Positions 11,405 through 27,532 of a DNA stretch of 47,545 bases are shown here, in pieces. The notes under the pieces were generated by a model that saw only the letters and a program-made list of their open reading frames with translations, did not search any database and had not been told where the DNA came from. A program made the translations under genes and the position numbers. Every line of letters begins with the position of its first letter. Within the stretch, counting starts at the first letter, position 1. Source of the DNA: Pseudomonadota bacterium (GTDB lineage Bacteria > Pseudomonadota > Gammaproteobacteria > Burkholderiales > Rhodocyclaceae); the NCBI GenBank assembly GCA_040386295.1, contig JAZKFR010000038.1, positions 4,933-52,477 of the forward strand, in the 5' to 3' direction.

Positions 11405-12106
11405 ATGTCCTTTAGAGCGAAAAAAGTGATTGCGCTGATCCCCGCCAGGGGCGGCTCAAAAGGAGTTCACCGCAAGAATTTGCGCCTTATCCAGGGGCGC
11501 CCTCTTGTCGCGCACAGCCTTCAGGCTGCACTCGATTGCACGCTAATTGATCAGGTTGTTCTCTCATCGGACGACGCGGAAATTTTGGCAGTCGGGCGCC
11601 ATCTAGGCGTGCAGCTGCACCAACGCTCGCCCGCAGCAGCCAGTGATAGCGCGACGGCCAATGAGGTGATGCATGATTTTTTAGCCGGGCTGCCACGCGA
11701 TGTGCTTGCGGCTGACCCGTTCGTGGTTTTTTTGCAGCCGACTTCCCCGCTCCGCACGGGCAAAGATATTGATGCTGCATTCGCTTTGCTTGAGTCGAGC
11801 CAGGCCGAGCTGTGTATTAGTGTTGTTGAAGTCAACAAAACGCCGTTCAAGTCATTCACGCTGGGCGCAACGGGCTGTCTTCAAGCCTTGTTTGACGAGA
11901 GCATGACGAATGCTAATCGACAGACTTTGCCGAAAATTTTTTACCCTAACGGGGCAATTTATATTTTCCCGCTGCACGCTTTCGTCAACAAGGGAGGATT
12001 CCCTTCAAATGGTGCAATTCCTTACGTGATGCCCGAGTCGCGTAGTATCGATGTCGATTCGGAAGAAGACTTACAAGCTATTGAGAGACTATGTCCAGAG
12101 AAATGA
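11405..12106 (+). CDS. neuA: CMP-nonulosonic acid synthetase (acylneuraminate cytidylyltransferase), copy 1
   Basis: IALIPARGGSKGVHRKNL and LQPTSPLR motifs of the CTP_transf_3 / NeuA family; 233 aa. Confidence 0.8.
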   Translation: MSFRAKKVIALIPARGGSKGVHRKNLRLIQGRPLVAHSLQAALDCTLIDQVVLSSDDAEILAVGRHLGVQLHQRSPAAASDSATANEVMHDFLAGLPRDVLAADPFVVFLQPTSPLRTGKDIDAAFALLESSQAELCISVVEVNKTPFKSFTLGATGCLQALFDESMTNANRQTLPKIFYPNGAIYIFPLHAFVNKGGFPSNGAIPYVMPESRSIDVDSEEDLQAIERLCPEK

Positions 12107-13134
12107 TCATTCAAGGGCGGGCGATTGGTGCCGAACACCCGCCTATCGTGATTGCCGAAATCGGCATCAATCACGAGGGTTCGCTCGCAACAGCCATCGC
12201 CATGGCCGATGCTGCAATCGACGCTGGCGCCGAAATCATTAAGCATCAAACGCATATCGTCGACGACGAAATGTCTGAAGAAGCGAAGTCCGTGATCCCC
12301 GGTAATGCCGATGTTTCGATTCACGAAATCATGGCACGTTGCGCGCTATCGGAGGCTGACGAAAAAACTTTGATGCAGCACGTGCAGGCGCGTGCTGCCA
12401 TTTTCATCAGTACGCCTTTCTCTCGAGCGGCAGCTGAACGGCTGATTCGCTTCGATATCCCAGCCTTTAAAATTGGCTCGGGCGAATGCAATAATTACCC
12501 CTTGATTCGCCATATCGCACGTGCTGGCAAACCCGTGATCATCAGTACCGGGATGAACAGTATCGAGTCGATTGCACCATCGGTCGCTATTCTGCGGCAG
12601 GCAGGCGTCCCCTACGCCTTGCTTCACTGCACCAACGTCTACCCGACGCCCGCCCATTTGGTGCGCTTAGGCGCGATGGTGAAATTGCAAGAGGCATTCC
12701 CTGACGCCATCGTTGGCCTTTCGGATCACACCGTTGGCAACTACACCTGTCTCGGCGCGGTGGCGCTTGGCGCATCCATTCTTGAGCGCCATTTTACGGA
12801 TCGCATGGATCGTCCGGGACCAGACATCGTTTGTTCGATGGATCCGGGTGCACTGAAGACGCTGATAGAGGGATCGAAGGTGATCTGGTCGGCGCGTGGC
12901 GGAGATAAAACAGCGATTGCAGCTGAAGCACCAACCATCGCGTTTGCCTTTGCCTCGGTGGTCGCTATTCGAGACATTGCTGCGGGTGAGTTATTGAGCG
13001 AGGAAAATATCTGGGTCAAGCGACCCGGTGGCGGTGATTACCTGGCTAAAGACTACGAGTCGCTCCTGGGAAAAACGGCGGTAAGCAATATCCGCAGCGG
13101 TTTCCAGTTGAGGAAAGCAGACGTATTGGTATGA
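12091..13134 (+). CDS. neuB: Nonulosonic acid synthase (NeuB family), copy 1
   Basis: Motifs IAEIGINHEG, KHQTH, STPFS, KIGSGE, STGM, LLHCTNVYPTP, GLSDHT and ERHFT, plus a C-terminal SAF domain. An alternative start at 12103 would give an ATGA overlap with neuA. Confidence 0.85.
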   Translation: MSREMIIQGRAIGAEHPPIVIAEIGINHEGSLATAIAMADAAIDAGAEIIKHQTHIVDDEMSEEAKSVIPGNADVSIHEIMARCALSEADEKTLMQHVQARAAIFISTPFSRAAAERLIRFDIPAFKIGSGECNNYPLIRHIARAGKPVIISTGMNSIESIAPSVAILRQAGVPYALLHCTNVYPTPAHLVRLGAMVKLQEAFPDAIVGLSDHTVGNYTCLGAVALGASILERHFTDRMDRPGPDIVCSMDPGALKTLIEGSKVIWSARGGDKTAIAAEAPTIAFAFASVVAIRDIAAGELLSEENIWVKRPGGGDYLAKDYESLLGKTAVSNIRSGFQLRKADVLV

Positions 13135-14267
13135 GCGATCAAGCTATCCGTAAGATCGTTTTTCTGACGGGAACCCGCGCTGATTTCGGCAAACTCAAGT
13201 CTTTGATGCTGCAGTTACAGGCAGACGCCTGCTTCGAGGTCCATGTCTTTGTTACTGGGATGCACATGCTGTCCAAGTACGGCTCAACCTGGGAGGAAGT
13301 GCGTAAAGCCGGCCTGAACAATCTTTACTGCTTCATCAATCAGAACGAACATGACTCGATGGATCATATCCTGGCCAAAACAATTGCCGGATTGTCCGAT
13401 TATGTGAAAGAAATGTCCCCCGACCTCATCGTCGTGCACGGTGATCGTCTAGAGGCGCTGGCAGGCGCGATTGTCGGCGCGTTTAACAACATTCGCGTTG
13501 CCCACATCGAAGGGGGCGAGGTGTCGGGCACGATTGACGAAGTCATTCGGCATTCAATCTCAAAGATGTCGCATCTCCACTTCGTTGCGAATGATCAAGC
13601 GAAGCGACGGTTGATCCAGCTGGGCGAGCGGGATGAGACAATCCACGTGATTGGTTCTCCCGATGTTGATGTAATGAATTCTTCTGCCTTGCCCTCGCTG
13701 GAGGAAGTGCAGCGCTATTACGAATTTAATTTTGCCGAATACGCCATTCTGATGTTCCACCCGGTAACGACCGAGCTGCGTCTGATCCGCAATCAGATAG
13801 CAACACTCGTCGATGTGATTCTCGAGTCGGGACAAAACTTCGTTGTTCTGTATCCGAACAACGATCATGGTACGGATATTATTTTGGACGAATACGAGCG
13901 GCTACGTGACTGTGCGCGGATTGCCCTCTACCCGTCTATGCGCTTTGAGTATTTCCTAACGCTGCTCAAGCGCGCTCGTTACATGATCGGCAACTCAAGC
14001 GCGGGCATCCGTGAAGCACCCCACTTTGGCGTTCCTACCATCAATTTAGGTTCAAGGCAGCACAGACGAGTGCAAACGCCTTCTGTGTTGGATGTCACGA
14101 TCACGCATGAGGCTATTCGAGACGCCATTGCGCGCGCGCCCTCGGCACCGAGAACACCGCAGATTCTGTTTGGCGATGGCAACAGTGCTTCTGCTTTTCA
14201 CCAAGTACTGCGCGCCAAAGAGACCTGGCTTAGGGAAATTCAGAAGCATTTTGTCGATTACATGTAA
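13131..14267 (+). CDS. neuC: Hydrolysing NDP-HexNAc 2-epimerase (NeuC family), copy 1
   Basis: Motifs FLTGTRADFGKL, HGDRLEALAGA, HIEGGEVSGTIDE, RHSISKMSHLHF and GNSSAGIREAP. The start forms an ATGA overlap with neuB. Confidence 0.85.
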   Translation: MSDQAIRKIVFLTGTRADFGKLKSLMLQLQADACFEVHVFVTGMHMLSKYGSTWEEVRKAGLNNLYCFINQNEHDSMDHILAKTIAGLSDYVKEMSPDLIVVHGDRLEALAGAIVGAFNNIRVAHIEGGEVSGTIDEVIRHSISKMSHLHFVANDQAKRRLIQLGERDETIHVIGSPDVDVMNSSALPSLEEVQRYYEFNFAEYAILMFHPVTTELRLIRNQIATLVDVILESGQNFVVLYPNNDHGTDIILDEYERLRDCARIALYPSMRFEYFLTLLKRARYMIGNSSAGIREAPHFGVPTINLGSRQHRRVQTPSVLDVTITHEAIRDAIARAPSAPRTPQILFGDGNSASAFHQVLRAKETWLREIQKHFVDYM

Positions 14268-14305
14268 GCAAAAAGCAGCACTTTGCTGACCAGCAAATTT
14301 TTTGG

Positions 14306-15532
14306 ATGAACTCATTGATTATGTCTACTGCATATTTTGGCCTGCCTGAAAAGGTGGTGTTCTGCAAATCCTGCGTTATCTCCAATCAACGCCCGAACTC
14401 AACGGTTGAGTTCAAGCACACGCAAGACGAACGAAAAGCCACGATTGGTTTTGGTGACGACGGCATTTGTGACGCTTGCCGATACGGCAAAGAAAAGGCA
14501 GCCAACATCAACTGGACTGAGCGGGAGGATCGCTTGGTTGCCCTGCTCGACAAGCACCGTAAAAATGCGGGCGGATACGACGTGATTGTGCCAGGCAGCG
14601 GGGGCAAAGACAGCGCATACACCTCGCATATATTGAAGTACCGCTACGGCATGAACCCGCTGACCGTCACCTGGGCGCCCCACAAGTACACGGAAATTGG
14701 CTGGAAGAATTTTGAGAATTGGATGCACGTTGGGGGCTTGGACAACATTTTGTTCACGCCGAACGGTCGGCTTCACCGTTACTTGACGCGGATCGCCTTT
14801 CTCAACCTACTTCATCCGTTTCAACCCTTTATTGTCGGCCAGAGAATCATTGGCCCGCTGATGGCGGCAAAGTTCGGTGTTCCCTTGGTCATGTACGGCG
14901 AAAATCAGGCCGAGTATGGCAACAACCCCGATGACAACTATGTTCCGACCATGGACAGGAAGTTTTTCTCTGTGACTAAGGCCGAGGATATCGTTCTCGG
15001 CGGCAGGTCGATCGGCGAGATTGTCGGCACAGGCGAATTCAAGCTGAATGATTTTGCCCCTTATATTCCGCCCAGCGCGGACTATCTTGAGCGCCAGGGC
15101 GTCGAGGTGCACTACCTTGGTTACTACCTGCCGTGGGATCCACAAGAATGCTACTACTACGCTGCCGAACACACCGGCTTCCAAGCCAACTCGGAGCGTA
15201 CGGAAGGAACTTACTCGAAGTACAGCAGCATTGATGATCGCGTCGACATGTTCCACTACTACACAACGCTGATTAAATTTGGTATTGGGCGCGCCACCTA
15301 CGACGCAGCTCAAGAAATCCGCAATGGCAAGATCACGCGCGAAGAAGGGGAGCAGTTGGTGCGTCGTTACGACCAAGAGTTTCCGAAGAAATACTTCCAA
15401 GATTTTCTCGACTACGTCTCTCTAAGCGAAGAGGAATTTCACACGACCGTGGATAAATTTCGTTCGCCACACCTGTGGGAACAACTCAACGGTACGTGGC
15501 AACTAAAGCATACGGTTTGGCAACCTAAGTGA
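14306..15532 (+). CDS. N-acetyl sugar amidotransferase (WbuX/PseA/WbpG family)
   Basis: An N-terminal CxxC...CxxC pair (CKSC, CDAC) is followed by the PP-loop SGGKDS. It lies immediately upstream of HisF/HisH paralogs. Confidence 0.8.
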   Translation: MNSLIMSTAYFGLPEKVVFCKSCVISNQRPNSTVEFKHTQDERKATIGFGDDGICDACRYGKEKAANINWTEREDRLVALLDKHRKNAGGYDVIVPGSGGKDSAYTSHILKYRYGMNPLTVTWAPHKYTEIGWKNFENWMHVGGLDNILFTPNGRLHRYLTRIAFLNLLHPFQPFIVGQRIIGPLMAAKFGVPLVMYGENQAEYGNNPDDNYVPTMDRKFFSVTKAEDIVLGGRSIGEIVGTGEFKLNDFAPYIPPSADYLERQGVEVHYLGYYLPWDPQECYYYAAEHTGFQANSERTEGTYSKYSSIDDRVDMFHYYTTLIKFGIGRATYDAAQEIRNGKITREEGEQLVRRYDQEFPKKYFQDFLDYVSLSEEEFHTTVDKFRSPHLWEQLNGTWQLKHTVWQPK

Positions 15533-16362
15533 GTATGCAGCGTCAATCCAATCAAGCCGATCAATCCAGTCAGCCCAGCAAACCCAGTACGCAGCGCAAC
15601 GTCAGGCTAATCGCACGCCTAGACATTAAGGGATCGAATCTGATCAAAGGGATCCATCTCGAGGGTCTGCGCGTGATTGGCTCAGCGCAGGAGCACGCGC
15701 TCAAGTATTACCTACAAGGCGCAGACGAACTGATCTACATGGATTGTGTTGCCAGTCTGTATGGGCGCAATCATCTTGCTGAGATCATCAGTCAGGCCGC
15801 GCGTGACATCTTCGTGCCAATGACCGTCGGTGGCGGCATTCGTTCGGTAGAAGATGCAACGCAAATTTTGCGCGCTGGCGCCGACAAAGTGGCGGTCAAC
15901 ACCGCTGCAGTCGCGAATCCAGACTTGATTAGCCGCATCGCCCAGCGCTTCGGCAGCCAATGTATGGTGCTGTCAGTTGAAGCCAAACAGATTGCCCCGG
16001 GTTGCTGGGAGGCTTACGCCGACAATGGCCGCGAGCGTAGCGGCAGGGACGTTGTGGCCTGGGTGAAAGAGGCAGTTGCGCTAGGAGCAGGCGAAGTCCT
16101 CATCACGTCGATTGATCGTGAGGGAACACGCAAAGGCTTCGATGTTGCCCTCGTGCAGGCGGTCACTGCGGCGGTCAGCGTACCGGTGATTGCGAGTGGC
16201 GGCATGGGGCGGCTAGAAGACTTCTCGGATGTGGTGAGTAACGGGGGCGCCGATGCTGTTGCGATGGCGGACATCCTGCATTACAACCGCGCATCGATTG
16301 GTGAAATTCGCGAGCAGGCTTGTCGCTCTGGCATCGCAGTGAGGCATTATGTGCGCCGCTAA
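15529..16362 (+). CDS. HisF-like cyclase subunit paralog (WbuZ-type)
   Basis: RLIARLDIKG...VGGGIRS...VLITSIDREGT...IASGG, a (beta/alpha)8 HisF signature. The GTG start overlaps the upstream stop. Confidence 0.8.
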   Translation: MSMQRQSNQADQSSQPSKPSTQRNVRLIARLDIKGSNLIKGIHLEGLRVIGSAQEHALKYYLQGADELIYMDCVASLYGRNHLAEIISQAARDIFVPMTVGGGIRSVEDATQILRAGADKVAVNTAAVANPDLISRIAQRFGSQCMVLSVEAKQIAPGCWEAYADNGRERSGRDVVAWVKEAVALGAGEVLITSIDREGTRKGFDVALVQAVTAAVSVPVIASGGMGRLEDFSDVVSNGGADAVAMADILHYNRASIGEIREQACRSGIAVRHYVRR

Positions 16363-16993
16363 AGTCGCCCTGATTGACTACGGCATGGGAAATCTACTCA
16401 GTGTCCAGCGCGGCTTGGAGCGCGTGGGTGCCGAGGTTCACGTCACTTCCGAGCCCGAGCACATTCTGTCTGCCGATAGAGTGGTTCTGCCCGGTGTCGG
16501 CGCTTTCCCTGACGCTATGGACGAACTTGAGCGGCGTGGACTGGTGCCAGTGATGCGCACTCTGGCGAAGCAAGGAACGCCCTTGCTCGGGATCTGTCTC
16601 GGCATGCAAATTCTCTTCGACGTAGGACTTGAGTTTGGCGAAACAGCGGGACTTGGCCTGATTCCCGGCCGCGTTCTGCCGATGCCTAAAGTATCCGCCC
16701 AGGGTGATCTGCTGAAAATTCCGCACATCGGCTGGAACTCGCTACATCCGGCAGGCGACAGCGATTGGCAGACGGGCGTACTCGCCGAACTTGAATCGGG
16801 CGAAGCGGTTTATTTTGTGCACTCTTTCATGGCGCAGCCGCAAGAAGCGCGGTTTAGCATTGCCCACTGTTTTTACGGCGGGATTCCGATTGCTGCGGTC
16901 GTCGGCAGAAATAAAGTGCTTGGCTGCCAATTTCATCCAGAGAAAAGTGGTGAAGTGGGTCTGCGCGTTTTACGCGGATTTCTGTCGCTTTGA
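16349..16993 (+). CDS. HisH-like class I glutamine amidotransferase paralog (WbuY-type)
   Basis: VALIDYGMGNL, LPGVGAF, GICLGMQ (nucleophile Cys) and FHPEKS. Confidence 0.8.
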   Translation: MCAAKVALIDYGMGNLLSVQRGLERVGAEVHVTSEPEHILSADRVVLPGVGAFPDAMDELERRGLVPVMRTLAKQGTPLLGICLGMQILFDVGLEFGETAGLGLIPGRVLPMPKVSAQGDLLKIPHIGWNSLHPAGDSDWQTGVLAELESGEAVYFVHSFMAQPQEARFSIAHCFYGGIPIAAVVGRNKVLGCQFHPEKSGEVGLRVLRGFLSL

Positions 16994-17024: not shown

Positions 17025-18191
17025 GTGTCACCTTACTTAAAAAAATTGGCCGCTTTCTGCTCGTATTTTTGGCACGCTAAAAAGACTTGGTCTTGGCCGA
17101 AGAAAAGCGACATTCTTATTTTTGATGCTTGCGGAGAAGCGCTGCTGCGCGAATATCTAAGCGACTGGTCGATTGAGGTTTTGCCTGTTCGTGGCGAACG
17201 GATCAATGTGCCACTCATGCTCGCCAGTTTGTTTGTTTCCGGGCGCAGGTCAGAAGCTTATTTTGATCTCTACGTGCGCAAGGTTGCGCCCAAATTGATC
17301 ATCACGTTTATCGACAACACTCCCGCCTTTTATCGACTCACAGTGCGGCATCCTGGGGTGAAAACGATGTTCATACAGAACGGCTGGCGTAGTCGTTATG
17401 GCGACGTTTTCGAGTTATTGACAGAGCCCGCGCCAAGCCAGAAAAACGCACTGGCGGTTGACTACATGATGTGTTTCGGCTCTGCGATAGGCGCCCATTT
17501 CCAGCGTTACATCGCAGGCGAAGTTATGGCGATCGGCGCGCTACGCAACAACCGTCAGCCACAGCTCGCCAGCAAAGCGGCCGGGACAATCGCTTTTATT
17601 TCGCAATGGAGTCGACATGGCGTGCAGCTAGCGGGCAAAACTTATTCTCAGGATGCGTTTATGGGTACAGCAGATCGCTGCATTCTCGCTTTCCTGTCCA
17701 AGTACGCAGCCGAGCACAAAAAAAAGCTGTATATCATTCCGCGCACGCACGTCGGCAGCGTCGATCGCCGCGATGAGACAAGCTACTATTCGGCCTTACT
17801 CGGCAAAGCCTGTTCTTTCCTAGAATACGACACGCCAGGATCGTCCTATCAAGCGATCGACGTTGCCGAAGTCGTTGTCGGGGTTGATTCAACCCTGGTC
17901 TATGAAACCATCGCGCGTGGGAACAAGGCAGCGGTGTTCGCCATCAGAAGTGCATTGATGGGCGTCGAGGGCTTTGAATATGGTTGGCCGGCGCCGCTCG
18001 CGGCAGAGGGCGCGTTCTGGACTAACTCACCATCGCCTGAGCGATTTAGAGCGGTTTTAGATTATTTATTCTCGACCAGCGAAGCGCAGTGGCGCGCTGA
18101 ACTTAAGCGTGTTTCGTTTGAGCAACTCATGGTTTTTGATCCTGATAACACAATCCTAAAAACAACCCTAACTCAGGTGTTACGCAGCTGA
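17025..18191 (+). CDS. Orphan 388-aa protein, possible GT-B-like (NulO?) transferase
   Basis: The tracked ORF (from 16791) overlaps hisH-like by 200 nt and has no early ATG. The in-frame GTG at 17025, 10 nt after GGAG, is the likely start. The layout looks Rossmann-like (LIITFIDN, IAFISQW, LYIIPRTH, VVVGVDSTLVYE). Confidence 0.55.
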   Translation: MSPYLKKLAAFCSYFWHAKKTWSWPKKSDILIFDACGEALLREYLSDWSIEVLPVRGERINVPLMLASLFVSGRRSEAYFDLYVRKVAPKLIITFIDNTPAFYRLTVRHPGVKTMFIQNGWRSRYGDVFELLTEPAPSQKNALAVDYMMCFGSAIGAHFQRYIAGEVMAIGALRNNRQPQLASKAAGTIAFISQWSRHGVQLAGKTYSQDAFMGTADRCILAFLSKYAAEHKKKLYIIPRTHVGSVDRRDETSYYSALLGKACSFLEYDTPGSSYQAIDVAEVVVGVDSTLVYETIARGNKAAVFAIRSALMGVEGFEYGWPAPLAAEGAFWTNSPSPERFRAVLDYLFSTSEAQWRAELKRVSFEQLMVFDPDNTILKTTLTQVLRS

Positions 18192-18239: not shown

Positions 18240-19235
18240 ATGAAGGTATTAGTCACTGGCGCGGATGGCTTCATCGGTTCGCACCTGACCGAGGCGCTGG
18301 TTGAAGCAGGTTACGCAACCAAAGCGTTCGTCTTGTACAACTCGTTTAACTCCTGGGGATGGCTAGATCATACGCGCCCGGAAATTAAGCAAAGCCTCGA
18401 GGTATTTGCCGGCGACGTGCGCGATCCGCATGGGGTGAAAGCCGCGATGAAAGGCTGCGATGTCGTGCTCCATCTGGCCTCGCTGATTGCGATTCCGTAC
18501 TCGTACCATTCGCCGGACACCTACGTTGAGACGAATATCAAGGGCACTTTGAACATCCTACAGGCGGCTCGTGAACTGGGCGTATCACGCGTGGTGCATA
18601 CCTCAACCAGCGAGGTCTATGGGAGTGCGCGCTTTGTCCCAATTACCGAAGAGCACCCCTTACAAGGACAATCGCCCTACTCGGCGAGCAAGATTGCCGC
18701 CGACCAACTGGCTTATTCGTTTTACGCTTCTTTTGGCCTGCCCGTAACCATAGCGCGTCCCTTCAATACCTATGGCCCACGGCAGTCGGCTCGCGCCGTG
18801 ATTCCTACGATCATTACGCAAATTGCCCAGGGCAAGAAGCAAATCAAATTAGGTGCTGTTTCCCCAACACGCGACTTCAACTATGTGCAGGACACGGTTG
18901 CCGGATTCCTGGCAGCGATGCGTTCGGACTTGGGATTGGGCGAGGTAGTGAACTTCGGTAGCAACTTTGAAATCTCGATTGGCGACACGGTTGAACTGAT
19001 CGCTGCAGTGATGGGCGAGCAGATCGAGGTGCTCACCGATGAAGCAAGACTGCGCCCGCAAACCTCGGAGGTAGAGCGCCTGTGGGCCGCAAACGAGAAG
19101 GCAGCTCGCTTATTCAACTGGCGGCCCGCTTATGGCGGACGTGATGGTTTTCGCCGAGGCTTAAGCGAAACGATTTCCTGGTTTCTGCGCCCAGAAAATC
19201 TGCGCACTTACAAAGCAGATACCTACAACATCTGA
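18240..19235 (+). CDS. legB: NAD-dependent NDP-HexNAc 4,6-dehydratase (extended SDR, LegB-like)
   Basis: VLVTGADGFIGSHL Rossmann motif, catalytic YSASK, and the YNSFNSWGWLD segment I associate with LegB-type enzymes. Confidence 0.7.
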   Translation: MKVLVTGADGFIGSHLTEALVEAGYATKAFVLYNSFNSWGWLDHTRPEIKQSLEVFAGDVRDPHGVKAAMKGCDVVLHLASLIAIPYSYHSPDTYVETNIKGTLNILQAARELGVSRVVHTSTSEVYGSARFVPITEEHPLQGQSPYSASKIAADQLAYSFYASFGLPVTIARPFNTYGPRQSARAVIPTIITQIAQGKKQIKLGAVSPTRDFNYVQDTVAGFLAAMRSDLGLGEVVNFGSNFEISIGDTVELIAAVMGEQIEVLTDEARLRPQTSEVERLWAANEKAARLFNWRPAYGGRDGFRRGLSETISWFLRPENLRTYKADTYNI

Positions 19236-20411: not shown

Positions 20412-21007
20412 GCCAGCCTAATCTGATCCTGCTTGGCGCAGGCGGACACGCCCGAGCCTGCATTGACGTGATTGAACAACAAGGGCTGTATCGACTTGCC
20501 GGATTGATTGCGCCGCCGAGCGAAGTCGGCACTCTCCACTGCGGGCATCGGGTCATAGCCAGCGATAACGAACTCGCAGCCTTGAGCCAACGGTATCCCT
20601 ACGCGTTCATTGGCATCGGCCAGCTTCGTTCGCCTACGATAAGGATACGGATGTTCCACCAGTTGCTTGATTTGGGTTTTCAGCTGCCGACCCTCATCGC
20701 GCCAGATGCCTACGTTTCTCCGCACGCTTCAATCGGCTCGGGCAGCATCATCATGCACGGTGCGATTATCAATGCCGGTGCCAAGGTAGGGCGCAATTGC
20801 ATCATTAACAGCCGCGCACTCGTTGAACACGACGCTCAAATAGACGATCACTGCCATCTGTCGACAGGCGCCATCCTCAACGGCGGCGTCAGGCTCGGCG
20901 AAGGCAGCTTCGTCGGGAGCGCAAGCGTCGTTAAGGAGGGCGTCACGCTTCCCCCGGGCAGCCTACTCGGCATGGGGTCGATGATCAAAAATGCGCAGCA
21001 AGCATGA
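20408..21007 (+). CDS. NeuD/PglD-family N-acetyltransferase (LegH-equivalent)
   Basis: An N-terminal LILLGAGGHA Rossmann-like domain plus a C-terminal hexapeptide left-handed beta-helix (IGSGSIIMHGAIINAGAKVGRNCIINS...). Confidence 0.75.
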   Translation: MSQPNLILLGAGGHARACIDVIEQQGLYRLAGLIAPPSEVGTLHCGHRVIASDNELAALSQRYPYAFIGIGQLRSPTIRIRMFHQLLDLGFQLPTLIAPDAYVSPHASIGSGSIIMHGAIINAGAKVGRNCIINSRALVEHDAQIDDHCHLSTGAILNGGVRLGEGSFVGSASVVKEGVTLPPGSLLGMGSMIKNAQQA

Positions 21008-21043: not shown

Positions 21044-22051
21044 ATGAAGCAGCAAACCATCCTCATCGCAGAGGCCGGCGTAAACCATAACGGCGACCTC
21101 AATATGGCCAAGCGCCTCATTGATGTCGCCGCTGACGCCGGCGCCGATTACGTTAAGTTTCAGACTTTCAGCGCCGAGCGCCAGGTGACCCGCTACGCGC
21201 AAAAAGCGAATTATCAGATCGCCACGACGGACAGCGCTGAGTCGCATTACGCGATGCTGAAGAAGCTTGAGCTTTCAGCCGAGATGCACCACGCGCTGCT
21301 CGCGCATTGCCAACAACGCGCGATCGGATTTCTGTCGACGGGCTTCGATATTGAGGCAGTCAAGTTTCTCCACTCGCTCGGTGTACGCCTGTTCAAAATC
21401 CCCTCCGGCGAAGTCACTAATCTCCCCTATTTGCGCTATGTCGGTAGCTTAGGCGGCGACATTATTTTATCCACGGGGATGTGTTCACTAGGCGAGGTGG
21501 AAGCGGCGCTGACGCTACTTGAACAAGCCGGTACGGCACGCACACGCGTCACCGTGCTGCACTGCACCACCGAGTACCCGGCGCCGATGCACGAAGTAAA
21601 TCTACGCGCCATGCACAACATCGGCCTGGCCTTCGGCGTCAGAACAGGCTATTCAGACCATACGCAGGGTATCGAAGTGGCGATTGCTGCGGTTGCGCTC
21701 GGCGCCTGCTTGATCGAGAAACACTTCACCCTTGATCGAAGCTTGCCCGGACCAGACCATCAAGCAAGCCTGGAACCGCATCAATTAAAAGAAATGGTTT
21801 TAGCCATACGCAACATCGAGCTTGCGCTGGGCGACGGCATCAAACGCCTTGCTTCTGCCGAGCGCGACAACCTTGCCGTCGCAAGAAAATCAATCGTTGC
21901 CGCGCGCGCAATTCGCCAAGGCGAAGCCTTCTCGTGCGAAAACCTGTGCACCAAACGACCCGGCAACGGAATCTCACCGATGTGCTGGGACGAATTACTC
22001 GGCGAACTCGCGAGCCGCGACTTCGCGCCCGACGAGCTGATCGAACGCTGA
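21044..22051 (+). CDS. legI: Nonulosonic acid synthase (NeuB family), copy 2 (LegI-like)
   Basis: IAEAGVNHNGD, KFQTF, KIPSGE, STGM, VLHCTTEYPAP, GYSDHT and EKHFT, plus a SAF domain. It is clearly divergent from copy 1. Confidence 0.8.
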   Translation: MKQQTILIAEAGVNHNGDLNMAKRLIDVAADAGADYVKFQTFSAERQVTRYAQKANYQIATTDSAESHYAMLKKLELSAEMHHALLAHCQQRAIGFLSTGFDIEAVKFLHSLGVRLFKIPSGEVTNLPYLRYVGSLGGDIILSTGMCSLGEVEAALTLLEQAGTARTRVTVLHCTTEYPAPMHEVNLRAMHNIGLAFGVRTGYSDHTQGIEVAIAAVALGACLIEKHFTLDRSLPGPDHQASLEPHQLKEMVLAIRNIELALGDGIKRLASAERDNLAVARKSIVAARAIRQGEAFSCENLCTKRPGNGISPMCWDELLGELASRDFAPDELIER

Positions 22052-22089: not shown

Positions 22090-23268
22090 ATGAATCGGAA
22101 AATCTGCTTTATCACCGGGACACGCGCCGAATACGGGCTGTTGCGTGGCGTCATGCAAGCCACACTGAACGAAGCCTCGTTCACGCTTCAACTGATTGCC
22201 ACGGGCAGCCATTTGTCCCCCGAGTTCGGCCTTACGTATCGTGAAATTGAAGACGATGGCTTTGCCATAGACCGCAAGCTGGAACTCCTGCTCAGCTCTG
22301 ATAGCGCACAAGGCACCGCCAAATCGATGGGTCTGGGCATGATTGCGTTCGCTGATGCGTTCGCTTCATTGAAGCCCGATTTACTCGTTGTCTTGGGCGA
22401 TCGCTTCGAGATTTTCGCGGCAGTCGCTGCCGCACTGGTGGCAAAAATTCCTGTTGCGCACCTGCATGGCGGCGAAGTGACTGAAGGCGCTTTCGACGAC
22501 GCGTTGCGACACGCCATCACCAAAATGTCGCACCTGCATTTCGTCGCGGCGGAAGACTATCGAAGACGCGTCATCCAGCTGGGCGAAGACCCGCAGCGGG
22601 TTTTTAATGTGGGCGGCTTGGGCGTGGACGCCATTGCGCATACGCAATTGCTATCGCGTAGCGAACTCGAGGCATCTTTAGATTTCCGCTTACGTGAGCA
22701 AAATTTACTGGTGACCTTTCATCCGCCAACGCTGGACGAAACCGACGCCACGCAGCAAATGGACGCCATGCTGACAGCACTGGCAGAGTTGCCGGAGCTT
22801 GGCTTAATCATCACGCTACCGAACGCGGATGTCGGGGGACGCGCGCTGATCAAATTGATCCACGATTTCGCCGCCGAGCACGCGAATACCGTTGTATTCC
22901 CCTCGCTCGGCCGGGTGCGTTACCTGTCTTGCCTGGCGCAAGTCGACGGCGTACTGGGTAATTCGTCCAGCGGCTTGTTGGAAGCACCGACCTACCGCAA
23001 AGGCACGATCAACATCGGTAATCGCCAACAGGGACGGCTGAAAGCAGAGAGCGTGATTGACTGTGCAGCGGACGTTCAAGCCATTAGCCAGGCGATCCAG
23101 CGCCTTTTCTCCGCAGAGTTCCAGTCCACTCTGCTTAAGGTAGTCAGCCCTTATGGCGAAGCGGGGGCAAGCTATAAAATTATCGATCAATTACGCCAAC
23201 TCGACTTCCGTGCTTTGACTAAAAAAAGCTTTTACAACCTCACTGATTCTGCGGCGGGGATAAAGTGA
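22090..23268 (+). CDS. legG: Hydrolysing NDP-HexNAc 2-epimerase (NeuC family), copy 2 (LegG-like)
   Basis: FITGTRAEYGLL, LGDRFE, HLHGGEVTEGAFDD, RHAITKMSHLHF and GNSSSGLLEAP. Confidence 0.8.
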   Translation: MNRKICFITGTRAEYGLLRGVMQATLNEASFTLQLIATGSHLSPEFGLTYREIEDDGFAIDRKLELLLSSDSAQGTAKSMGLGMIAFADAFASLKPDLLVVLGDRFEIFAAVAAALVAKIPVAHLHGGEVTEGAFDDALRHAITKMSHLHFVAAEDYRRRVIQLGEDPQRVFNVGGLGVDAIAHTQLLSRSELEASLDFRLREQNLLVTFHPPTLDETDATQQMDAMLTALAELPELGLIITLPNADVGGRALIKLIHDFAAEHANTVVFPSLGRVRYLSCLAQVDGVLGNSSSGLLEAPTYRKGTINIGNRQQGRLKAESVIDCAADVQAISQAIQRLFSAEFQSTLLKVVSPYGEAGASYKIIDQLRQLDFRALTKKSFYNLTDSAAGIK

Positions 23269-23284: not shown

Positions 23285-24343
23285 GTGGTTCGAGGTGATC
23301 AATTGAAAGATGAGTCCTGGCGGCGCGCCATTCTTCCCTTGCAGGCAACGCTGCAAGACGCGATTCGTAATTTGACTGAGGTCGCGATCAAAATCGTCCT
23401 CATCACGGACACGGCGGAGCGCTTCATCGGTACGATTTCCGACGGCGATATTCGTCGCGGACTCCTGCGCGGCTTGACGCTGAGCAGTCCGATCAGCGAA
23501 GTAATCCATCGTAATGCCTTGGTTTTGCCACCGGCTGTCGCGCACGATTTGGTCATGCGCCTGATGGCTGTCAATAAAATTCAACAGATCCCGATTGTCG
23601 ATGAAACGAACCGGCTCGTCGGTTTGCATCTTTGGGATCAAATGGCCGCACCGCAAGGGCGGGCAAACCTGATGGTGATCATGGCCGGCGGCAAGGGAAC
23701 ACGCTTACATCCGCATACCGAAGCTTGTCCGAAGCCGATGTTGCAGGTGTCTGGCAAGCCCATGCTTGAACACATCATTCAACGGGCAAAACTCGAGGGC
23801 TTCAGCAATTTTGTTCTCGCCATTCACTACCTCGGCCACATGGTCGAAGCGCATTTCGGCGACGGCAGCAACTGGGGTGTGCGTATCGATTACCTGCGTG
23901 AGCAATCGCCTTTGGGCACGGCGGGCGCACTGAGCCTGCTCGACCCGGTGCCCGAGCTGCCCTTCGTCGTAACCAACGGCGATGTGTTGACCGATATACG
24001 CTACGGCGAACTACTCGATTTTCACTCTATGCACAACGCTTCGGCGACCATGGCTGTGTGCGTGCACGAATGGCAGCATCCTTTCGGCGTGGTACACATC
24101 GACGGCGTCAACATCGTTGGCTTTGACGAAAAGCCGATTGCACGTAGCCACATCAATGCGGGCGTTTACGTACTCAACGGCAAGGCACTCACGCTGCTCG
24201 AGTCAGCTCAGCCTTGCGATATGCCGGCCTTATTTCAGCGTTTGCAGACGCAAGGCAAGCGCACCGTCGCTTATCCCATGCACGAGCCTTGGCTAGATGT
24301 TGGTCGCCCCGAAGATTTGCGACGGGCGCGCAATGGAGAGTAG
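23285..24343 (+). CDS. ptmE: CBS-domain sugar-1-phosphate nucleotidyltransferase (PtmE-like)
   Basis: An N-terminal CBS pair (ISDGDIRRG, IPIVDE) is followed by the NTP-transferase motif IMAGGKGTRL...KPML. The GTG start lies 5 nt after GAGGTGAT. Confidence 0.7.
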   Translation: MVRGDQLKDESWRRAILPLQATLQDAIRNLTEVAIKIVLITDTAERFIGTISDGDIRRGLLRGLTLSSPISEVIHRNALVLPPAVAHDLVMRLMAVNKIQQIPIVDETNRLVGLHLWDQMAAPQGRANLMVIMAGGKGTRLHPHTEACPKPMLQVSGKPMLEHIIQRAKLEGFSNFVLAIHYLGHMVEAHFGDGSNWGVRIDYLREQSPLGTAGALSLLDPVPELPFVVTNGDVLTDIRYGELLDFHSMHNASATMAVCVHEWQHPFGVVHIDGVNIVGFDEKPIARSHINAGVYVLNGKALTLLESAQPCDMPALFQRLQTQGKRTVAYPMHEPWLDVGRPEDLRRARNGE

Positions 24344-25385
24344 GCATCAGCGTTCGCCGATTGAGCGTGTTCTGATCGTCGGGCTGGGCAGCATTGGTCG
24401 ACGTCATCTCGCGCTGGCGCGGGAACTGCTGCCGCAAGCGGACATCAGAGTGCTGCGCCGCACCAAGCACGCAGAGCTTGCACCGGGGGCGAATGCGCTT
24501 TTCTCTGCCTTGCCAGATGCCGTCGCCTTTGCACCGCAGCTCAGCATTATTGCCAACCCGGCGCCATTCCATCTGCCCGTAGCGATGGCATTAGCTGAAG
24601 CAGGTTCGCACCTACTGCTGGAAAAACCTATTGCGCACTCGAGTCGCGGCGTGGCTGAGCTGATCGCACTGAGCGCGCGACGCAAGGTGCGTCTGCACAT
24701 TGCCTACAATCTCCGCTTCTTGGCGAGTTTGCAGCGTTTTCGCGAATGCGTTCACAGTGGCCAAATTGGTCATGTGCACACCATACGCTGCGAGGTCGGG
24801 CAATACCTGCCAAGCTGGCGGCCAGAACAAGACTATCGCGCTACGGTGTCGGCGCAAGCTGCACTAGGCGGAGGGGTCTTGCTTGAATTGAGTCACGAGA
24901 TTGATTATCTGCGCTGGATTTTTGGCGAGCTTGAATGGGTGCATGGCAACTTGCTGCGGCAGGGCGCATTGGAAATTGATGTCGAAGACAGCGCGCACTT
25001 GCTCTTAGGCTTTGTTCCGCGCGCAGGGGAGCAGCAGGCGGTAGCCAATGTCAGCCTCGATTTCATCCGTCGTGACACGACTCGCTATTGCCTTGCTCTG
25101 GGCTCAGAAGGCAGTCTGCGTTGGGACGGCATTTCTGGCCAGCTGATGCACTACACGCCAGAGCAGGCGGAATGGCGCGAACTATTTGCCCACACGCCGA
25201 AGCGGGACGATACCTACAGGATGCAGCTCGAGAACATGCTCGACGGCATTGCTAGCGGCGTAGCGCCAGCGGTCACCGGCAGCGATGCTTTGGCCGTGAT
25301 GCAGATCATTGAAGCGATTCGCCTCTCGGCACAAGAAGGGGGCAGACGAATGTCAGTCTATGCGCAGAACAGGCAGGTGCCGTGA
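24333..25385 (+). CDS. ptmF: Gfo/Idh/MocA-family oxidoreductase-fold protein (PtmF-like)
   Basis: VLIVGLGSIGRRHL Rossmann N-terminus and an EKP motif (LLEKPIA). I prefer the start at ATG 24333, an 11-nt overlap with the upstream gene. Confidence 0.65.
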   Translation: MESRHQRSPIERVLIVGLGSIGRRHLALARELLPQADIRVLRRTKHAELAPGANALFSALPDAVAFAPQLSIIANPAPFHLPVAMALAEAGSHLLLEKPIAHSSRGVAELIALSARRKVRLHIAYNLRFLASLQRFRECVHSGQIGHVHTIRCEVGQYLPSWRPEQDYRATVSAQAALGGGVLLELSHEIDYLRWIFGELEWVHGNLLRQGALEIDVEDSAHLLLGFVPRAGEQQAVANVSLDFIRRDTTRYCLALGSEGSLRWDGISGQLMHYTPEQAEWRELFAHTPKRDDTYRMQLENMLDGIASGVAPAVTGSDALAVMQIIEAIRLSAQEGGRRMSVYAQNRQVP

Positions 25386-26083
25386 TGGGCTACAGCGCGT
25401 TTATTTTCGCGCGGGGCGGCTCGAAAGGACTGCCCGGTAAGAATCTCAGACCACTAGCGGGTAAACCGCTGATCGCTTGGTCAATCGAACAGGCGCTAGC
25501 CGTGACGCGCATTGAACGGGTGATCGTCTCAACGGACTCGCCCGAGATCGCCTCGGTAGCACTTGATTATGGCGCGCAAGTACCTTTTTTACGGCCAGCA
25601 GAACTGGCGCGTGACGACAGCGCCGAATGGCTGGCTTGGCGTCACGCCCTGGGTTATTTGCAAGCGCATGAACTGAAGATGCCGACGGCGCTGCTTTCTC
25701 TTCCCGCAACAGCCCCCTTGCGCGCAAGCTGCGACATAGAGAAGTGCTTGGACGAGTATGAAACAGGCGCCTTCGATATTGTCGTCACGATCACTGAAGC
25801 GAGTCGAAGTCCTTACTTCAACATGGTCAAATTCAACACAGATCAGTCGGTCAGCCTCGTCATTCCCCCCGCCAATGGCATCACGCGCAGACAAGATGCG
25901 CCGCCCGTATTTGACATGACGACGGTGGCCTACGTAGCGAATTCTGCTTTTGTGATGGCGCAGACTGGCACGTTTGCCGGACGCGTTGGCGCCGTAAGGG
26001 TTCCGCGCGAAAGGGCACTGGATATCGATACCCTGCTCGATTTTAGGTTTGCCGAGTTTCTGCTACAAAACGGAGGAAAGTAG
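25382..26083 (+). CDS. legF: CMP-nonulosonic acid synthetase, copy 2 (LegF-like)
   Basis: FIFARGGSKGLPGKNL and a CTP_transf_3 layout; 233 aa. The start is GTGATG, overlapping the upstream stop. Confidence 0.8.
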   Translation: MMGYSAFIFARGGSKGLPGKNLRPLAGKPLIAWSIEQALAVTRIERVIVSTDSPEIASVALDYGAQVPFLRPAELARDDSAEWLAWRHALGYLQAHELKMPTALLSLPATAPLRASCDIEKCLDEYETGAFDIVVTITEASRSPYFNMVKFNTDQSVSLVIPPANGITRRQDAPPVFDMTTVAYVANSAFVMAQTGTFAGRVGAVRVPRERALDIDTLLDFRFAEFLLQNGGK

Positions 26084-26084
26084 T

Positions 26085-26888
26085 GTGGCAACACTCAAAG
26101 AGAAACTAGACCTATCGGGACGCCTGGCTTTGGTCACGGGCGCCACCGGCAATATCGGCAAGCTCATGGCGCTGACGCTAGCCGAGATGGGCGCTGACTT
26201 ACTTTTGCTCGACCGGCCTAATGCGCCGTTTGCACCCTTGCAAGAAGAAATAGCGGCGCTTGCCTCTGTGCGCGTTGATTGCCTGCCCTGCGATCTTGAG
26301 TCTGGCGAACAACGGCAAGCGCTGATCGCAACGCTCGTGGAGTCCAAGCGGGCGCTGCATGTGCTGGTCAACAACGCAGCCTTTGTTGGCAGCTCAGACC
26401 TCGAGGGCTGGGCAGTTCCGTTTGCCGAACAGCGGATCGATACGTGGCGGCGCGCGTTTGAAGTTAACCTCACCGCCGTCTTTGAGCTATGCCAAGGACT
26501 ACTGCCGCTGATGCAAGCCTCGACCGGCGCTAGCATCGTCAATATCGGATCGATTTACGGAATCTGCGGGCCTGATTGGTCGCTCTACGCAGGCACCAGC
26601 ATGGCGAATCCCGCTGCCTATGCTGCTTCAAAAGGCGGGCTGATCCAGCTGACGCGCTGGTTGGCGACAACGCTAGCACCCGGCGTTAGGGTCAATGCAA
26701 TTTCCCCCGGCGGGGTCTGGCGCAACCAGCCTGAATCCTTTGTCGACAAATATCAATCGCGTACCCCGCTTGGCCGGATGGCGAGCGAAGACGATTTCGC
26801 CGGAGCGCTCGCCTACTTGGCTTCGGACTTATCTGCCTACGTCACGGGGCAAAACCTGGTCGTCGATGGCGGCTGGAGCGCTTGGTAG
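26085..26888 (+). CDS. ptmA: Classical short-chain dehydrogenase/reductase-fold protein (PtmA-like)
   Basis: [15 protein letters not shown] and YAASK motifs. The GTG start at 26085 lies 8 nt after GGAGGA. Confidence 0.7.
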
Positions 26889-26899
26889 GGAACAAATCT

Positions 26900-27532
26900 A
26901 TGCTGCTCAATGAACTGCTCGAATTGCTGCGCTTTTGGCGCAAAGCTGATCGCCTCGGCCCCGACATCCCCCTCACGCACTGGCGACTGCATGTGAAATC
27001 ACTGATGCGTCCGCTTTGCCAAGCCAAGTTCCAGCATTTTGGCGAGGGTGCGGAATTTAGAGCGGGCGCCTACGCCGTCTGCTGCTCAAAAATCAGTCTA
27101 GGTAAACGGGTGGTCGTGCGACCGGGCAGCATGTTGTTTGCCGATCCGCGCCCCGATGGCGCCGGCATTCTGATTGAAGATGACGTGATGATGGGTTCTG
27201 GCGTGCATATTTACGTTCATAACCACCGCTTTGACGATCTGGATTTGCCTATTATTGACCAGGGCTATTTCCCCTCTCGTCCGGTGATACTTGAGCGTGG
27301 CTGCTGGCTGGGTGCGCAGACGGTAGTGCTACCGGGCGTACGCGTCGGACGCAACGCGGTGGTCGCTGCCGGCTCGGTAGTGACCAAGGACGTGCCTGCC
27401 GGCGTTGTAGTTGCGGGTGTGCCAGCGCGCCTGATCAGACAGATTGGCGGCGGCTACGCTGAGCAAGTCGAGGCTGGCCTAGTAGCGGCAGCGGAAGTCG
27501 ACAAACCCGCTGCGCTAAGCGCGCAGGCATGA
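26900..27532 (+). CDS. Hexapeptide-repeat (LbH) acetyltransferase, Mac/LacA-like
   Basis: A C-terminal left-handed beta-helix ([45 protein letters not shown]). The start could be ATG 26900 or TTG 26882. Confidence 0.75.

Follow-up and report, generated by a model that had tools for sequence, protein, structure and literature searches.

Two predicted routes to CMP-activated nonulosonic acids in a single RfaH/ops-type glycan operon of a Rhodocyclaceae bacterium

A stretch of 47,545 nucleotides from contig JAZKFR010000038.1 (positions 4,933 to 52,477, forward strand; assembly GCA_040386295.1, a Rhodocyclaceae bacterium of the Pseudomonadota), referred to here as the window, contains a glycan locus in which genes for a hydrolysing 2-epimerase (NeuC), a nonulosonic acid (NulO) synthase (NeuB) and a CMP-NulO synthetase (NeuA) occur as two triads (Table 1). 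The six triad open reading frames (ORFs) listed in an earlier note on this DNA were recovered at their coordinates on the forward strand, and all are intact and full length against the family profiles. The motifs quoted in that note were also present, IKHQTH and HFTDRMDRPGPDIVCSM in copy 1 and VKFQTF and HFTLDRSLPGPDHQASL in copy 2. Pairwise identity between the copies is 38% for NeuB, 33% for NeuC and 31% for NeuA; with identities this low the triads represent ancient paralogues or xenologues and, as the note had maintained, not recent duplicates. It was likewise correct in assigning a dehydratase, an aminotransferase and an N-acetyltransferase to copy 2 alone, directly upstream of which the three genes lie. 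Absent from the note, and situated between the triads, are a WbuX/WbuZ/HisH amidotransferase trio and a gene of the LA_1612 family.

Table 1. Predicted features of the glycan locus, in window coordinates, with the matches on which each assignment is based.
Feature	Position	Strand	Match or remark
tRNA-Phe (GAA)	4749..4824	+	Rfam tRNA 71 bits, ARAGORN; upstream of rfaH
RfaH, operon-specific NusG paralogue (antiterminator)	5091..5609	+	TIGR01955 163.5 bits vs cut-off 144.5; Pfam NusG domain
ops element GGCGGTAGCCTG	5992..6003	+	pattern search; exact match to GGCGGTAGNNTG
ABC exporter/flippase, PglK/MsbA type, first operon gene	6231..8006	+	ABC_membrane + ABC_tran
LIC12162-family protein, candidate NulO transferase	8028..9899	+	TIGR04331 112.9 bits, below cut-off 225
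Small GT8-like glycosyltransferase, left cassette edge	10657..11346	+	Pfam Glyco_transf_8, weak, E=9e-6
NeuA1, CMP-NulO synthetase	11405..12106	+	CTP_transf_3/PseF-like profile, positions 1-217 of 222
NeuB1, NulO synthase, N. meningitidis NeuB family	12091..13134	+	TIGR03569, positions 2-327 of 329
NeuC1, hydrolysing NDP-HexNAc 2-epimerase, classical sialic-acid-cluster type	13131..14267	+	TIGR03568 421 bits vs cut-off 236, positions 1-365 of 365
WbuX/PseA/PtmG-family N-acetyl-sugar amidotransferase, acetamidino-forming	14306..15532	+	TIGR03573 357.8 bits vs cut-off 203.2
WbuZ, HisF-like amidotransferase partner, start codon uncertain	15529..16362	+	TIGR03572 271 bits, below cut-off 299.7; HisF 267 bits
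HisH-like glutaminase (WbuY role), ammonia supply	16349..16993	+	TIGR01855 205 bits vs cut-off 105
LA_1612-family protein (PF27908), GT-B fold, candidate NulO glycosyltransferase	17025..18191	+	TIGR04441 314 bits vs cut-off 150
LegB, NAD-dependent GDP-GlcNAc 4,6-dehydratase	18240..19235	+	TIGR04180 521 bits vs cut-off 475
LegC, PLP-dependent aminotransferase	19239..20411	+	TIGR04181 532 bits vs cut-off 420
LegH, NeuD/PglD-family N-acetyltransferase	20408..21007	+	TIGR03570 190 bits vs cut-off 161
NeuB2 = LegI, predicted legionaminic acid synthase	21044..22051	+	NeuB + SAF; TIGR03569 488 bits, positions 2-329 of 329
NeuC2 = LegG, hydrolysing GDP/UDP-diNAcBac 2-epimerase	22090..23268	+	TIGR03568 470 bits, positions 1-365 of 365
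PtmE-like CBS-domain sugar-1-phosphate nucleotidylyltransferase (GlcN-1-P guanylyltransferase, predicted)	23285..24343	+	nucleotidyltransferase 130-348, KpsF-type CBS 19-114
Gfo/Idh/MocA-type oxidoreductase, PtmF position	24297..25385	+	weak iolG and UDP-GlcNAc 3-dehydrogenase matches; no L086 counterpart
NeuA2 = LegF (PtmB-type), CMP-legionaminic acid synthetase (predicted)	25382..26083	+	CTP_transf_3/PseF profile, positions 2-220 of 222
Short-chain dehydrogenase, PtmA position	26049..26888	+	SDR family profiles
Hexapeptide-repeat O-acetyltransferase, possible NulO O-acetylase	26882..27532	+	maltose/galactoside O-acetyltransferase-like profiles
382-aa conserved protein, candidate transferase	27529..28677	+	no Pfam/NCBIfam match; 60% to L086 protein, same position
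Two SAM-dependent methyltransferases	28700..29530, 29563..30246	+	Pfam methyltransferase domains; GCA_041445565.1 synteny

To judge by its predicted genes, triad 2 is set in a canonical Campylobacter-type, GDP-dependent legionaminic acid (Leg) pathway with LegB, LegC, LegH, PtmE, a PtmF-like oxidoreductase and a short-chain dehydrogenase (SDR). LegB and LegC are accompanied by an N-acetyltransferase, an N,N'-diacetylbacillosamine (diNAcBac) 2-epimerase, a synthase, a CMP-synthetase and a nucleotidyltransferase of PtmE-type architecture. From the synthase through the epimerase, PtmE, the oxidoreductase and the CMP-synthetase to the SDR, the genes stand in the same order as Cj1327-Cj1332 of Campylobacter jejuni, for which the gene numbers of legI, legG, ptmE and legF were taken from PMC5378307. 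PtmE is a marker of the GDP-dependent Leg route (PMC5378307), and the PtmE-like gene of the window points to GDP-linked intermediates in the predicted pathway. NeuC2 scored 347 bits against the solved hydrolysing GDP/UDP-N,N'-diacetylbacillosamine 2-epimerase (5ZLR/5XVS), against 222 bits for NeuC1. NeuB2 is 34% identical to NeuB of Neisseria meningitidis and has as its best solved relative SpsE of Bacillus subtilis (1VLI, 193 bits), a member of the sps genes that have been reported as a legionaminic acid pathway (PMC7439481). The best solved relative of NeuA2 is 9FTB, a protein named 'NeuA' (107 bits). The assignments of NeuB2 as LegI and NeuA2 as LegF were made from gene context; the profile library returned no model specific to either. 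Genes for the PtmF-like protein, a NeuA2-like enzyme and the SDR recur as a group in other loci.

Triad 1 has the appearance of a Neu-type set, comprising a NeuC-family hydrolysing 2-epimerase and a synthase of barrel and SAF domain related to a proven N-acetylneuraminic acid (Neu5Ac) synthase. NeuB1 shares 67% identity (516 bits, residues 4-345) with the Neu5Ac synthase NeuB of N. meningitidis (1XUU) and retains the motifs KHQTH, VIPGNADVSI, HCTN.YPTP, ERHFTDRMDRPGPDIVCSM and KRPG. Its segment 70-85 is nearly identical to that of the meningococcal enzyme, which is specific for N-acetylmannosamine (ManNAc); the loop at 70-85 of NeuB contacts and recognises C4-C6 of ManNAc (PMC7371886). The best solved relative of NeuA1 is the CMP-N-acetylneuraminate synthetase 6IFD (154 bits), followed by the N. 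meningitidis enzyme 1EYR (98 bits). The substrate of NeuC1 is inferred to be UDP-N-acetylglucosamine (UDP-GlcNAc). The TIGR03569 'N-acetylneuraminate synthase' equivalog has a cut-off of 399.65 bits, which NeuB1 fails at 373 bits and NeuB2, in its Leg context, passes at 488 bits; names based on this profile are therefore uninformative as to the NulO made and represent an annotation pitfall.

A scan limited to one genome per species recovered 374 relatives of NeuB1. The best 80 (63-84% identity) were analysed together with the proteins of the window, so that the counts given here refer to 81 species-level loci with 10 kb examined on each side. Three contexts were apparent. A NeuC1-type epimerase without an amidotransferase was present in 35 loci, which represent classical Neu triads, those of Campylobacter, Moraxella and Alysiella among them. 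A contiguous arrangement neuA1-neuB1-neuC1-(0-2 genes)-wbuX-wbuZ-hisH, termed type A, was found in 24 of the 81 loci, approximately 30% of the surveyed genomes with a meningococcal-type NeuB, and extends over at least eight phyla or classes including Proteobacteria, Bacteroidota, Chlorobi, Verrucomicrobiota and Fibrobacteria. In the remaining context, type B (14 loci), the NeuB1-type synthase occurs with a LegB-type dehydratase (53-81% identity to LegB of the window), a PtmE-like protein and a LegG-like epimerase. A second synthase within 10 kb was located in Bordetella ansorpii (L059), in L017 and in a SAR86 genome (L031), the last being the exception among the type A loci, of which 23 have none at that distance; every double locus retains a complete second enzyme set.

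In neighbour-joining trees, constructed from local alignments and free of biochemically anchored Legionella or Escherichia coli sequences, NeuC1 and the type A epimerases were nested among the NeuCs of classical Neu clusters, and NeuC2 and the type B epimerases formed a separate LegG-like clade. LegB (at least 50% identity) accompanied none of 59 NeuC1-type epimerases within 10 kb as opposed to 14 of 22 LegG-like ones (Fisher p=1.8e-10). By association, triad 1 may thus operate independently of a 4,6-dehydratase, aminotransferase and N-acetyltransferase, yet in the window LegB, LegC and LegH lie only some 4 kb downstream. It is the epimerase NeuC, and not NeuB1, that is informative and that marks triad 1 as probably Neu-type. 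Of the phylogenies proposed in the earlier note, that of NeuC discriminates, the two copies falling in separate clades, and that of NeuB is not decisive. When the synthase of a type A Legionellaceae metagenome-assembled genome (MAG; L051) was used as the query, no Legionella pneumophila protein was present among the 120 best matches, all of at least 70% identity. A blastn search for the neu genes of E. coli K1 with an AT-rich Campylobacter neuB gave no match.

The three genes downstream of triad 1 encode a WbuX-family amidotransferase and, adjoining it, a HisH-like glutaminase and a HisF-like WbuZ, the components of an acetamidino-forming system. TIGR03572 is the best-scoring family for WbuZ, which stands at the expected position and is 83% identical to the proteins of two related loci, L084 and L086. 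WbuX of the window is 68-87% identical to the proteins of type A loci and L084, 77-80% identical to those in type B or related loci and 55% identical to that of L086, which indicates that it is of the subtype accompanying NeuB1-type synthases. Triad 1 is, by this comparison, not free-standing and would be part of a widespread cassette with its own PseA/PtmG-type amidotransferase. Within 10 kb of the 24 type A modules neither a LegB-type dehydratase nor a NeuD-type acetyltransferase was found, and DegT-type proteins made up only 7 of the 452 ORFs called in these loci. SDRs near the type A modules resembled Gmd, Fcl, GalE or TviC, and a single one was PseB/FnlA-like. This gene context argues against a hidden supply of diNAcBac. 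The 5-acetamidino form of Neu (Neu5Am) was proposed as the product, since no N-acetyl sugar other than that made by the adjacent triad recurs locally. Mass spectrometry (MS) peaks consistent with CMP-Neu5Am have been described for C. jejuni, where the amidotransferase was suggested to prefer nucleotide sugars (2026 preprint, bioRxiv 10.64898/2026.04.20.719630). A full-text literature search for 'Neu5Am' returned no mention beyond this preprint and no structural description in any glycan.

The genes of the window bear comparison with the O-antigen cluster of E. coli O145, which comprises nnaA-D, fnlABC and wbuXYZ and in which the amidino sugar is L-FucNAm, formed from UDP-L-FucNAc via FnlABC. 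Both unite Neu5Ac genes with a WbuX/WbuY/WbuZ trio in one cluster; they differ in the FnlA/B/C set, of which none is present in the window. The reading in which WbuX makes FucNAm, as in O145, was rejected on account of the SDR families found near the cassettes.

Informative relatives of the window were found through homologues of the LA_1612 protein: L086 (a JGI metagenome contig), a contig of GCA_041445565.1 and L084 (a Sphingorhabdus sp. MAG, GCA_041919355.1). The first two possess the backbone of the window without triad 1 and with a different WbuX, in the order ABC, LIC12162, ..., GT8, WbuX, WbuZ, HisH, LA_1612, LegB, LegC, LegH, LegI, LegG, PtmE, CMP-synthetase, 382-aa protein (plus methyltransferases). 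Identities between the window and L086 are 86% for GT8, 83% for WbuZ, 67% for HisH, 87% for LegB, 74% for LegC, 73% for NeuB2 and 67% for NeuC2, as against 55% for WbuX. By blastn, window positions 10360-11340 and 15594-23088 are collinear with L086. The intervening 11341-15593, which holds NeuA1, NeuB1, NeuC1 and WbuX, is not, except for patches in WbuX at 14585-14727 and 15100-15322. The GT8-like protein at the left edge is 86% identical to its counterpart in L086, directly before WbuX, and 81% identical to that in a short contig, L062, where it stands directly before NeuA1 and the same GT8-NeuA1 junction is found. L084 contains the same fusion as the window (NeuB1 and NeuC1 84%, WbuX 87%, LegB 88% and NeuB2 75% identity). 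The simplest history, reconstructed from these alignments, would be that a neuA-neuB-neuC-wbuX segment of a type A module recombined into a Leg cluster and displaced the resident wbuX. A second replacement relative to L086 was evident at 24310-27528, a stretch that encodes the PtmF-like protein, NeuA2, the SDR and the hexapeptide acetyltransferase and is not collinear with that contig; the CMP-synthetase of L086 at the position of NeuA2 is a different one, 36% identical to it.

L084 also has an additional methyltransferase and, upstream of its Neu-type and Leg modules, a third synthase module (L084:463-9304). The module encodes a 343-aa NeuB homologue, a HAD phosphatase, an SDR, an aldehyde dehydrogenase, a methyltransferase, a CTP_transf_3 enzyme and a transketolase-like protein, which brings the cluster to three ulosonic-acid synthases in all.

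Both triads belong to an array of 34 genes on the same strand (6231-39501), separated by gaps of at most 163 bp and frequently overlapping. An rfaH gene precedes the array. The 621 bp that separate the two form a leader with an ops element 228 bp 5' of the first operon gene, as is characteristic of RfaH/ops-type polysaccharide operons. No terminator-like site was predicted in any intergenic gap between triad 1 and triad 2. On these grounds the description of the array as one operon is fair and fits the data. Five matches to the ops pattern with up to one mismatch were counted across the window where 2.4 were expected, so the element carries weight because of its position in the leader. The numbers of predicted promoters and terminators were mostly at or below shuffle expectation, the sole excess being terminator-like sites within 25000-41500 (27 vs 19.9). 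The ops consensus is matched exactly once more, by GGCGGTAGTTTG on the reverse strand at 39665-39676 within an MFS transporter gene, probably by chance.

Export of the glycan would fall to the product of the first operon gene, a PglK/MsbA-type protein (MsbA 279 bits, PglK 274 bits, both below cut-off) with 65% identity to the first gene product of L086. Three candidate NulO transferases are encoded. The LIC12162-family protein is 56% identical to that of L086, and PF27859 (LIC12162) was detected on the L086 and GCA_041445565.1 homologues; NCBIfam names the family a transferase of Leptospira O-antigen loci. The LA_1612 gene is always located between the amidotransferase and Leg genes in the relatives. 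Its AlphaFold2 model (pLDDT 94, 64 sequences) matched GT-B enzymes in Foldseek, among them GT4 enzymes, TagF and the bacterial polysialyltransferase 5WCN, at TM-scores of 0.45-0.53, a predicted fold compatible with a transferase role without proving it. The gene for the 382-aa protein follows the CMP-synthetase gene in all backbone relatives; its single-sequence AlphaFold2 model was unusable (pLDDT 36). No relationship of LA_1612 to the 382-aa protein or LIC12162 was detected by BLASTP or hhalign, and a relaxed Pfam scan yielded nothing informative for the candidate transferases. All three already occur in the single-pathway relatives and so none came with the cassette. The configuration of both Neu5Ac and Leg5Ac7Ac is D-glycero-D-galacto, and a number of sialyltransferases can use either as the CMP-activated donor, so that an existing transferase could use the new donor, giving a mixed or two-NulO glycan.

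Taken together, these data make it probable that the operon encodes two non-redundant routes to CMP-activated NulOs. The most likely output would be CMP-Neu5Ac, possibly amidinated to Neu5Am, together with CMP-legionaminic acid. The identity and intactness of the genes, their synteny, the boundaries of the cassette and the association statistics are computed results; what the enzymes act on and make, whether Neu is amidinated and how the sugars are used have been deduced. In route 1 (11405-14267), which would require no deoxy-amino precursor, NeuC1 would convert UDP-GlcNAc to ManNAc, from which NeuB1 would form Neu5Ac and NeuA1 CMP-Neu5Ac. This route would have arrived as a mobile cassette with its own WbuX, replacing the WbuX of the Leg backbone upstream of WbuZ and HisH, and the sialic acid would probably be converted to Neu5Am; the same WbuX may also amidinate legionaminic acid. 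In route 2 (18240-26888) the PtmE, PtmF-like and SDR proteins would supply GDP-GlcN(Ac), which LegB would dehydrate, LegC aminate at C4 and LegH acetylate to yield GDP-diNAcBac. LegG (NeuC2) would then remove GDP and epimerise C2, LegI (NeuB2) would condense the resulting sugar with phosphoenolpyruvate and LegF (NeuA2) would generate CMP-Leg5Ac7Ac. The 34-gene array would be transcribed as one RfaH/ops-dependent unit, with the CMP-sugars passing to the LIC12162, LA_1612 and 382-aa candidate transferases and a lipid-linked surface glycan exported by the ABC transporter. More tentatively, neuA1-neuB1-neuC1-wbuX(-wbuZ-hisH) may constitute a dedicated mobile CMP-Neu5Am pathway and the operon glycan may contain Neu5Am as well as a legionaminic acid derivative, which we consider possible and would not yet call probable.

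Several observations weigh against this interpretation. The NeuB1-type synthase is the only synthase beside LegB in 14 other genomes (63-84% identity to NeuB1), for which reason NeuB1 alone is no proof of Neu5Ac. Synthases of the three contexts do not differ in their similarity to NeuB of N. meningitidis (60-70%), and no residue column diagnostic of context was found among NeuB1-type synthases, those of types A and B sharing lineage markers only; NeuB phylogeny would consequently not settle specificity. Nor could NeuB and LegI be told apart in a published tree of 13,941 sequences (PMC8208679). The neuC, neuB and neuA products of L. pneumophila act on UDP-diNAcBac to give legionaminic acid, with the dehydratase encoded outside the lipopolysaccharide (LPS) locus (PMC3766260), so the absence of a dehydratase nearby does not prove that none is needed. 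The backbone relatives carry WbuX, WbuZ and HisH with a Leg module, and as the window has a single WbuX at the junction of two modules, this enzyme may act in either the Leg or the Neu branch alone or in the two together. The WbuX family also has members that act on sugars other than NulOs, for example FucNAm in E. coli O145. Use of a Neu-type sugar would depend on an existing transferase accepting it, none having arrived with the cassette.

The position of the trio in the single-Leg relatives L086 and GCA_041445565.1, directly before LA_1612-LegB-LegC-LegH-LegI, would be explained if triad 1 made plain Neu5Ac and the trio served the Leg branch only, forming Leg5Am7Ac as in Legionella and C. 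jejuni, with the link of WbuX to triad 1 marking no more than the site of recombination. It is established that PtmG homologues amidinate Leg (PMC3766260), and WbuZ and HisH of the window are 83% and 67% identical to the backbone proteins. Its WbuX, by contrast, is of the NeuB1-accompanying subtype rather than that of the backbone, and this subtype adjoins Neu-type triads in 24 genomes, 23 of them without a second synthase within 10 kb; we regard service to Leg alone as unlikely, if worth serious consideration. A diNAcBac pool from LegB, LegC and LegH could instead feed both triads, with triad 1 as a Legionella-type branch to the same sugar or to 4-epi- or 8-epi-legionaminic acid, a form of the shared 2,4-diamino intermediate entertained in the earlier note. 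The cassette directly adjoins LegB, LegC and LegH in the window and in L084, the NeuC, NeuB and NeuA of L. pneumophila make CMP-Leg5Ac7Ac from one operon with a PtmG homologue (PMC3766260), and the pairing of NeuB1-type synthases with LegB and the inseparability of NeuB from LegI in large trees (PMC8208679) point the same way. This is not favoured and appears quite unlikely, given that NeuC1 belongs to the dehydratase-free Neu clade while LegB-linked loci use a LegG-like epimerase, that type A modules have no aminotransferase, acetyltransferase and dehydratase set nearby, and that the second enzyme set is complete in every double locus. The near-identity of the C4-C6-contact region of NeuB1 to the ManNAc-specific meningococcal enzyme and the absence of L. 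pneumophila NeuB from the matches of at least 70% identity to the Legionellaceae type A synthase also tell against it. We consider it very unlikely that one pathway is silent, the cassette being a recent horizontal acquisition without a dedicated transferase so that a single NulO reaches the surface. The cassette does lack a glycosyltransferase, its candidate partners all being present in the single-pathway relatives, and neuB of the homologous contig L062 has a gap of ~150 bp. The cassette ORFs of the window, however, are full length, and their start and stop codons overlap in the manner usual for translationally coupled genes; the same arrangement in the distant L084 (58-87% protein identity) argues for selection, and sialyltransferases are known to accept both CMP-Neu5Ac and CMP-Leg5Ac7Ac, as the two sugars have the same stereochemistry. 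The production of Neu5Ac and legionaminic acid by separate routes, the leading idea of the earlier note, hence stands as the best-supported reading, with NeuC1 among the classical Neu epimerases and LegB and LegC above their cut-offs; overall, the interpretation given in that note is partly supported.

The note had further supposed that two NulOs in one glycan would be unusual. Two NulO pathways per locus are not unusual in themselves, being known from C. jejuni, Leptospira interrogans and L. pneumophila, so the window does not represent a new kind of system. The flagellar glycosylation locus of C. jejuni includes pse and leg genes within Cj1311-Cj1331 (PMC5378307). Like the window, the wider Cj1293-Cj1342 contains two complete NulO pathways, each with a synthase and CMP-synthetase, and WbuX-family amidotransferases (PseA and PtmG) with HisH/HisF-like partners; its Leg half (LegB, LegC, LegI, LegG, PtmE, LegF) matches the genes described here (PMC5378307). 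It differs in that the second pathway makes pseudaminic acid and not a Neu-type sugar, the Neu5Ac genes being in a separate lipooligosaccharide locus, and in that the acceptor is flagellin, via Maf proteins, as opposed to a polysaccharide-type RfaH/ops operon with an ABC flippase. The NulO cluster of L. interrogans is also multi-synthase, with several CMP-synthetases and aminotransferases, and Neu5Ac and di-N-acetylated NulOs have been detected in the species (PMC3438082, Ricaldi et al. 2012); the LA_1612 and LIC12162 families were defined on Leptospira O-antigen loci. There the synthase for Neu carries a fused phosphatase, as part of an animal-like route, whereas NeuB1 is a stand-alone enzyme of meningococcal type in a triad with a dedicated amidotransferase. 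In the LPS locus of L. pneumophila, ORFs 21-28 include an aminotransferase gene, neuD, neuC, neuB, neuA and a ptmG homologue, and ORF 9 of serogroup 1 is a second neuB-family gene (PMC3766260). This locus, compared by description, resembles the window in having neuA, neuB and neuC in one operon with a WbuX/PtmG amidotransferase and a second synthase homologue, and its product is an acetamidino NulO in the O-antigen. Its gene order is different and the aminotransferase and NeuD are adjacent, whereas the type A cassette has neither. In Aliivibrio salmonicida, Neu5Ac and 8eLeg5Am7Ac are the products of two nab gene sets, which were analysed as separate Neu and Leg clusters (PMC7371886), in contrast to the window, in which both pathways share one transcription unit and one amidotransferase trio.

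Three features appear to be undescribed: a Neu-type triad is tightly and widely coupled to an amidotransferase of its own, the coupled genes behave as a cassette, and this cassette is fused to a GDP-type Leg pathway under one RfaH/ops unit. Sialic-acid-like sugars govern recognition of the bacterial surface by phages, predators, and animal complement and Siglec systems. If the proposed history is correct, the locus would offer a clean natural case of modular glycan-operon evolution, in which a four-gene cassette recombined into a Leg cluster at the amidotransferase gene. It would follow that NeuB annotation or phylogeny alone cannot predict the NulO made, the hydrolysing 2-epimerase and the presence of LegB being better predictors, which would matter for genome-based surveys of 'sialic acid' producers. 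Neu5Am is a zwitterionic sialic acid to which the cassette would be a dedicated route; a widespread gene set could thus make an amidinated, charge-neutralised sialic acid so far hinted at only by MS peaks, and NeuC1, NeuB1, NeuA1 and WbuX would lend themselves directly to chemoenzymatic synthesis.

Type B modules (L009:8765-15029; also L012, L005, L006, L013, L019, L032, L033, L041 and L047) share a gene content of LegB (538 bits, above cut-off), a meningococcal-type NeuB, a 272-aa SDR-fold protein, a LegG-like epimerase, a CMP-synthetase and PtmE. When LegC and LegH were used as tblastn queries, most of these loci gave no match to an aminotransferase or N-acetyltransferase within 10 kb. By their gene content such modules could be a route to a 9-deoxy, 7-hydroxy NulO through dehydratase and 4-reductase activities; we know of no description of this class of sugar. 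The type A module of Azonexus hydrophilus CP151406 (L002:7657-18291) contains an extra methyltransferase gene between neuC and wbuX and adjoins a divergent MptE-like (Maf-type, PF01973) gene, with an IS66 element following. The cassette may serve flagellin glycosylation in this species.

The tRNA-Phe gene lies 266 bp upstream of rfaH, beyond which the 33-kb glycan operon extends. tRNA-Phe is a classic site of island insertion and the gene is a possible insertion site here; no att-like copy of it of at least 12 nt occurs elsewhere in the window, and the GC content of the glycan region shows no clear difference from the flanks. Between a PepSY_TM protein and the tRNA gene, an ORF of 1115 aa on the reverse strand (1208-4555) gave no Pfam or NCBIfam match, even at relaxed threshold. 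At the right end an ORF of more than 611 aa (~45.7 kb to 47545) runs off the window, preceded by a 720-aa protein containing tetratricopeptide repeats (43074-45236). LeuA (41282-42814) and LegB were singleton clusters at 90% identity among 15 billion proteins, and the source lineage therefore has no close sequenced relative in that collection. Within the operon, the two methyltransferase genes following the 382-aa gene are conserved at that position in GCA_041445565.1 and their products may N- or O-methylate the NulO. Further downstream are genes for GT4 and GT2 enzymes, a deoxyhexose pathway, a deacetylase and a FemAB-like protein. The last two operon genes (37496-39501) encode a 343-aa protein with a weak partial match to DegT aminotransferases and a FemAB/GNAT-like protein (38494-39501, matched in a relaxed Pfam scan), which may decorate the glycan with an aminoacyl or acyl group.

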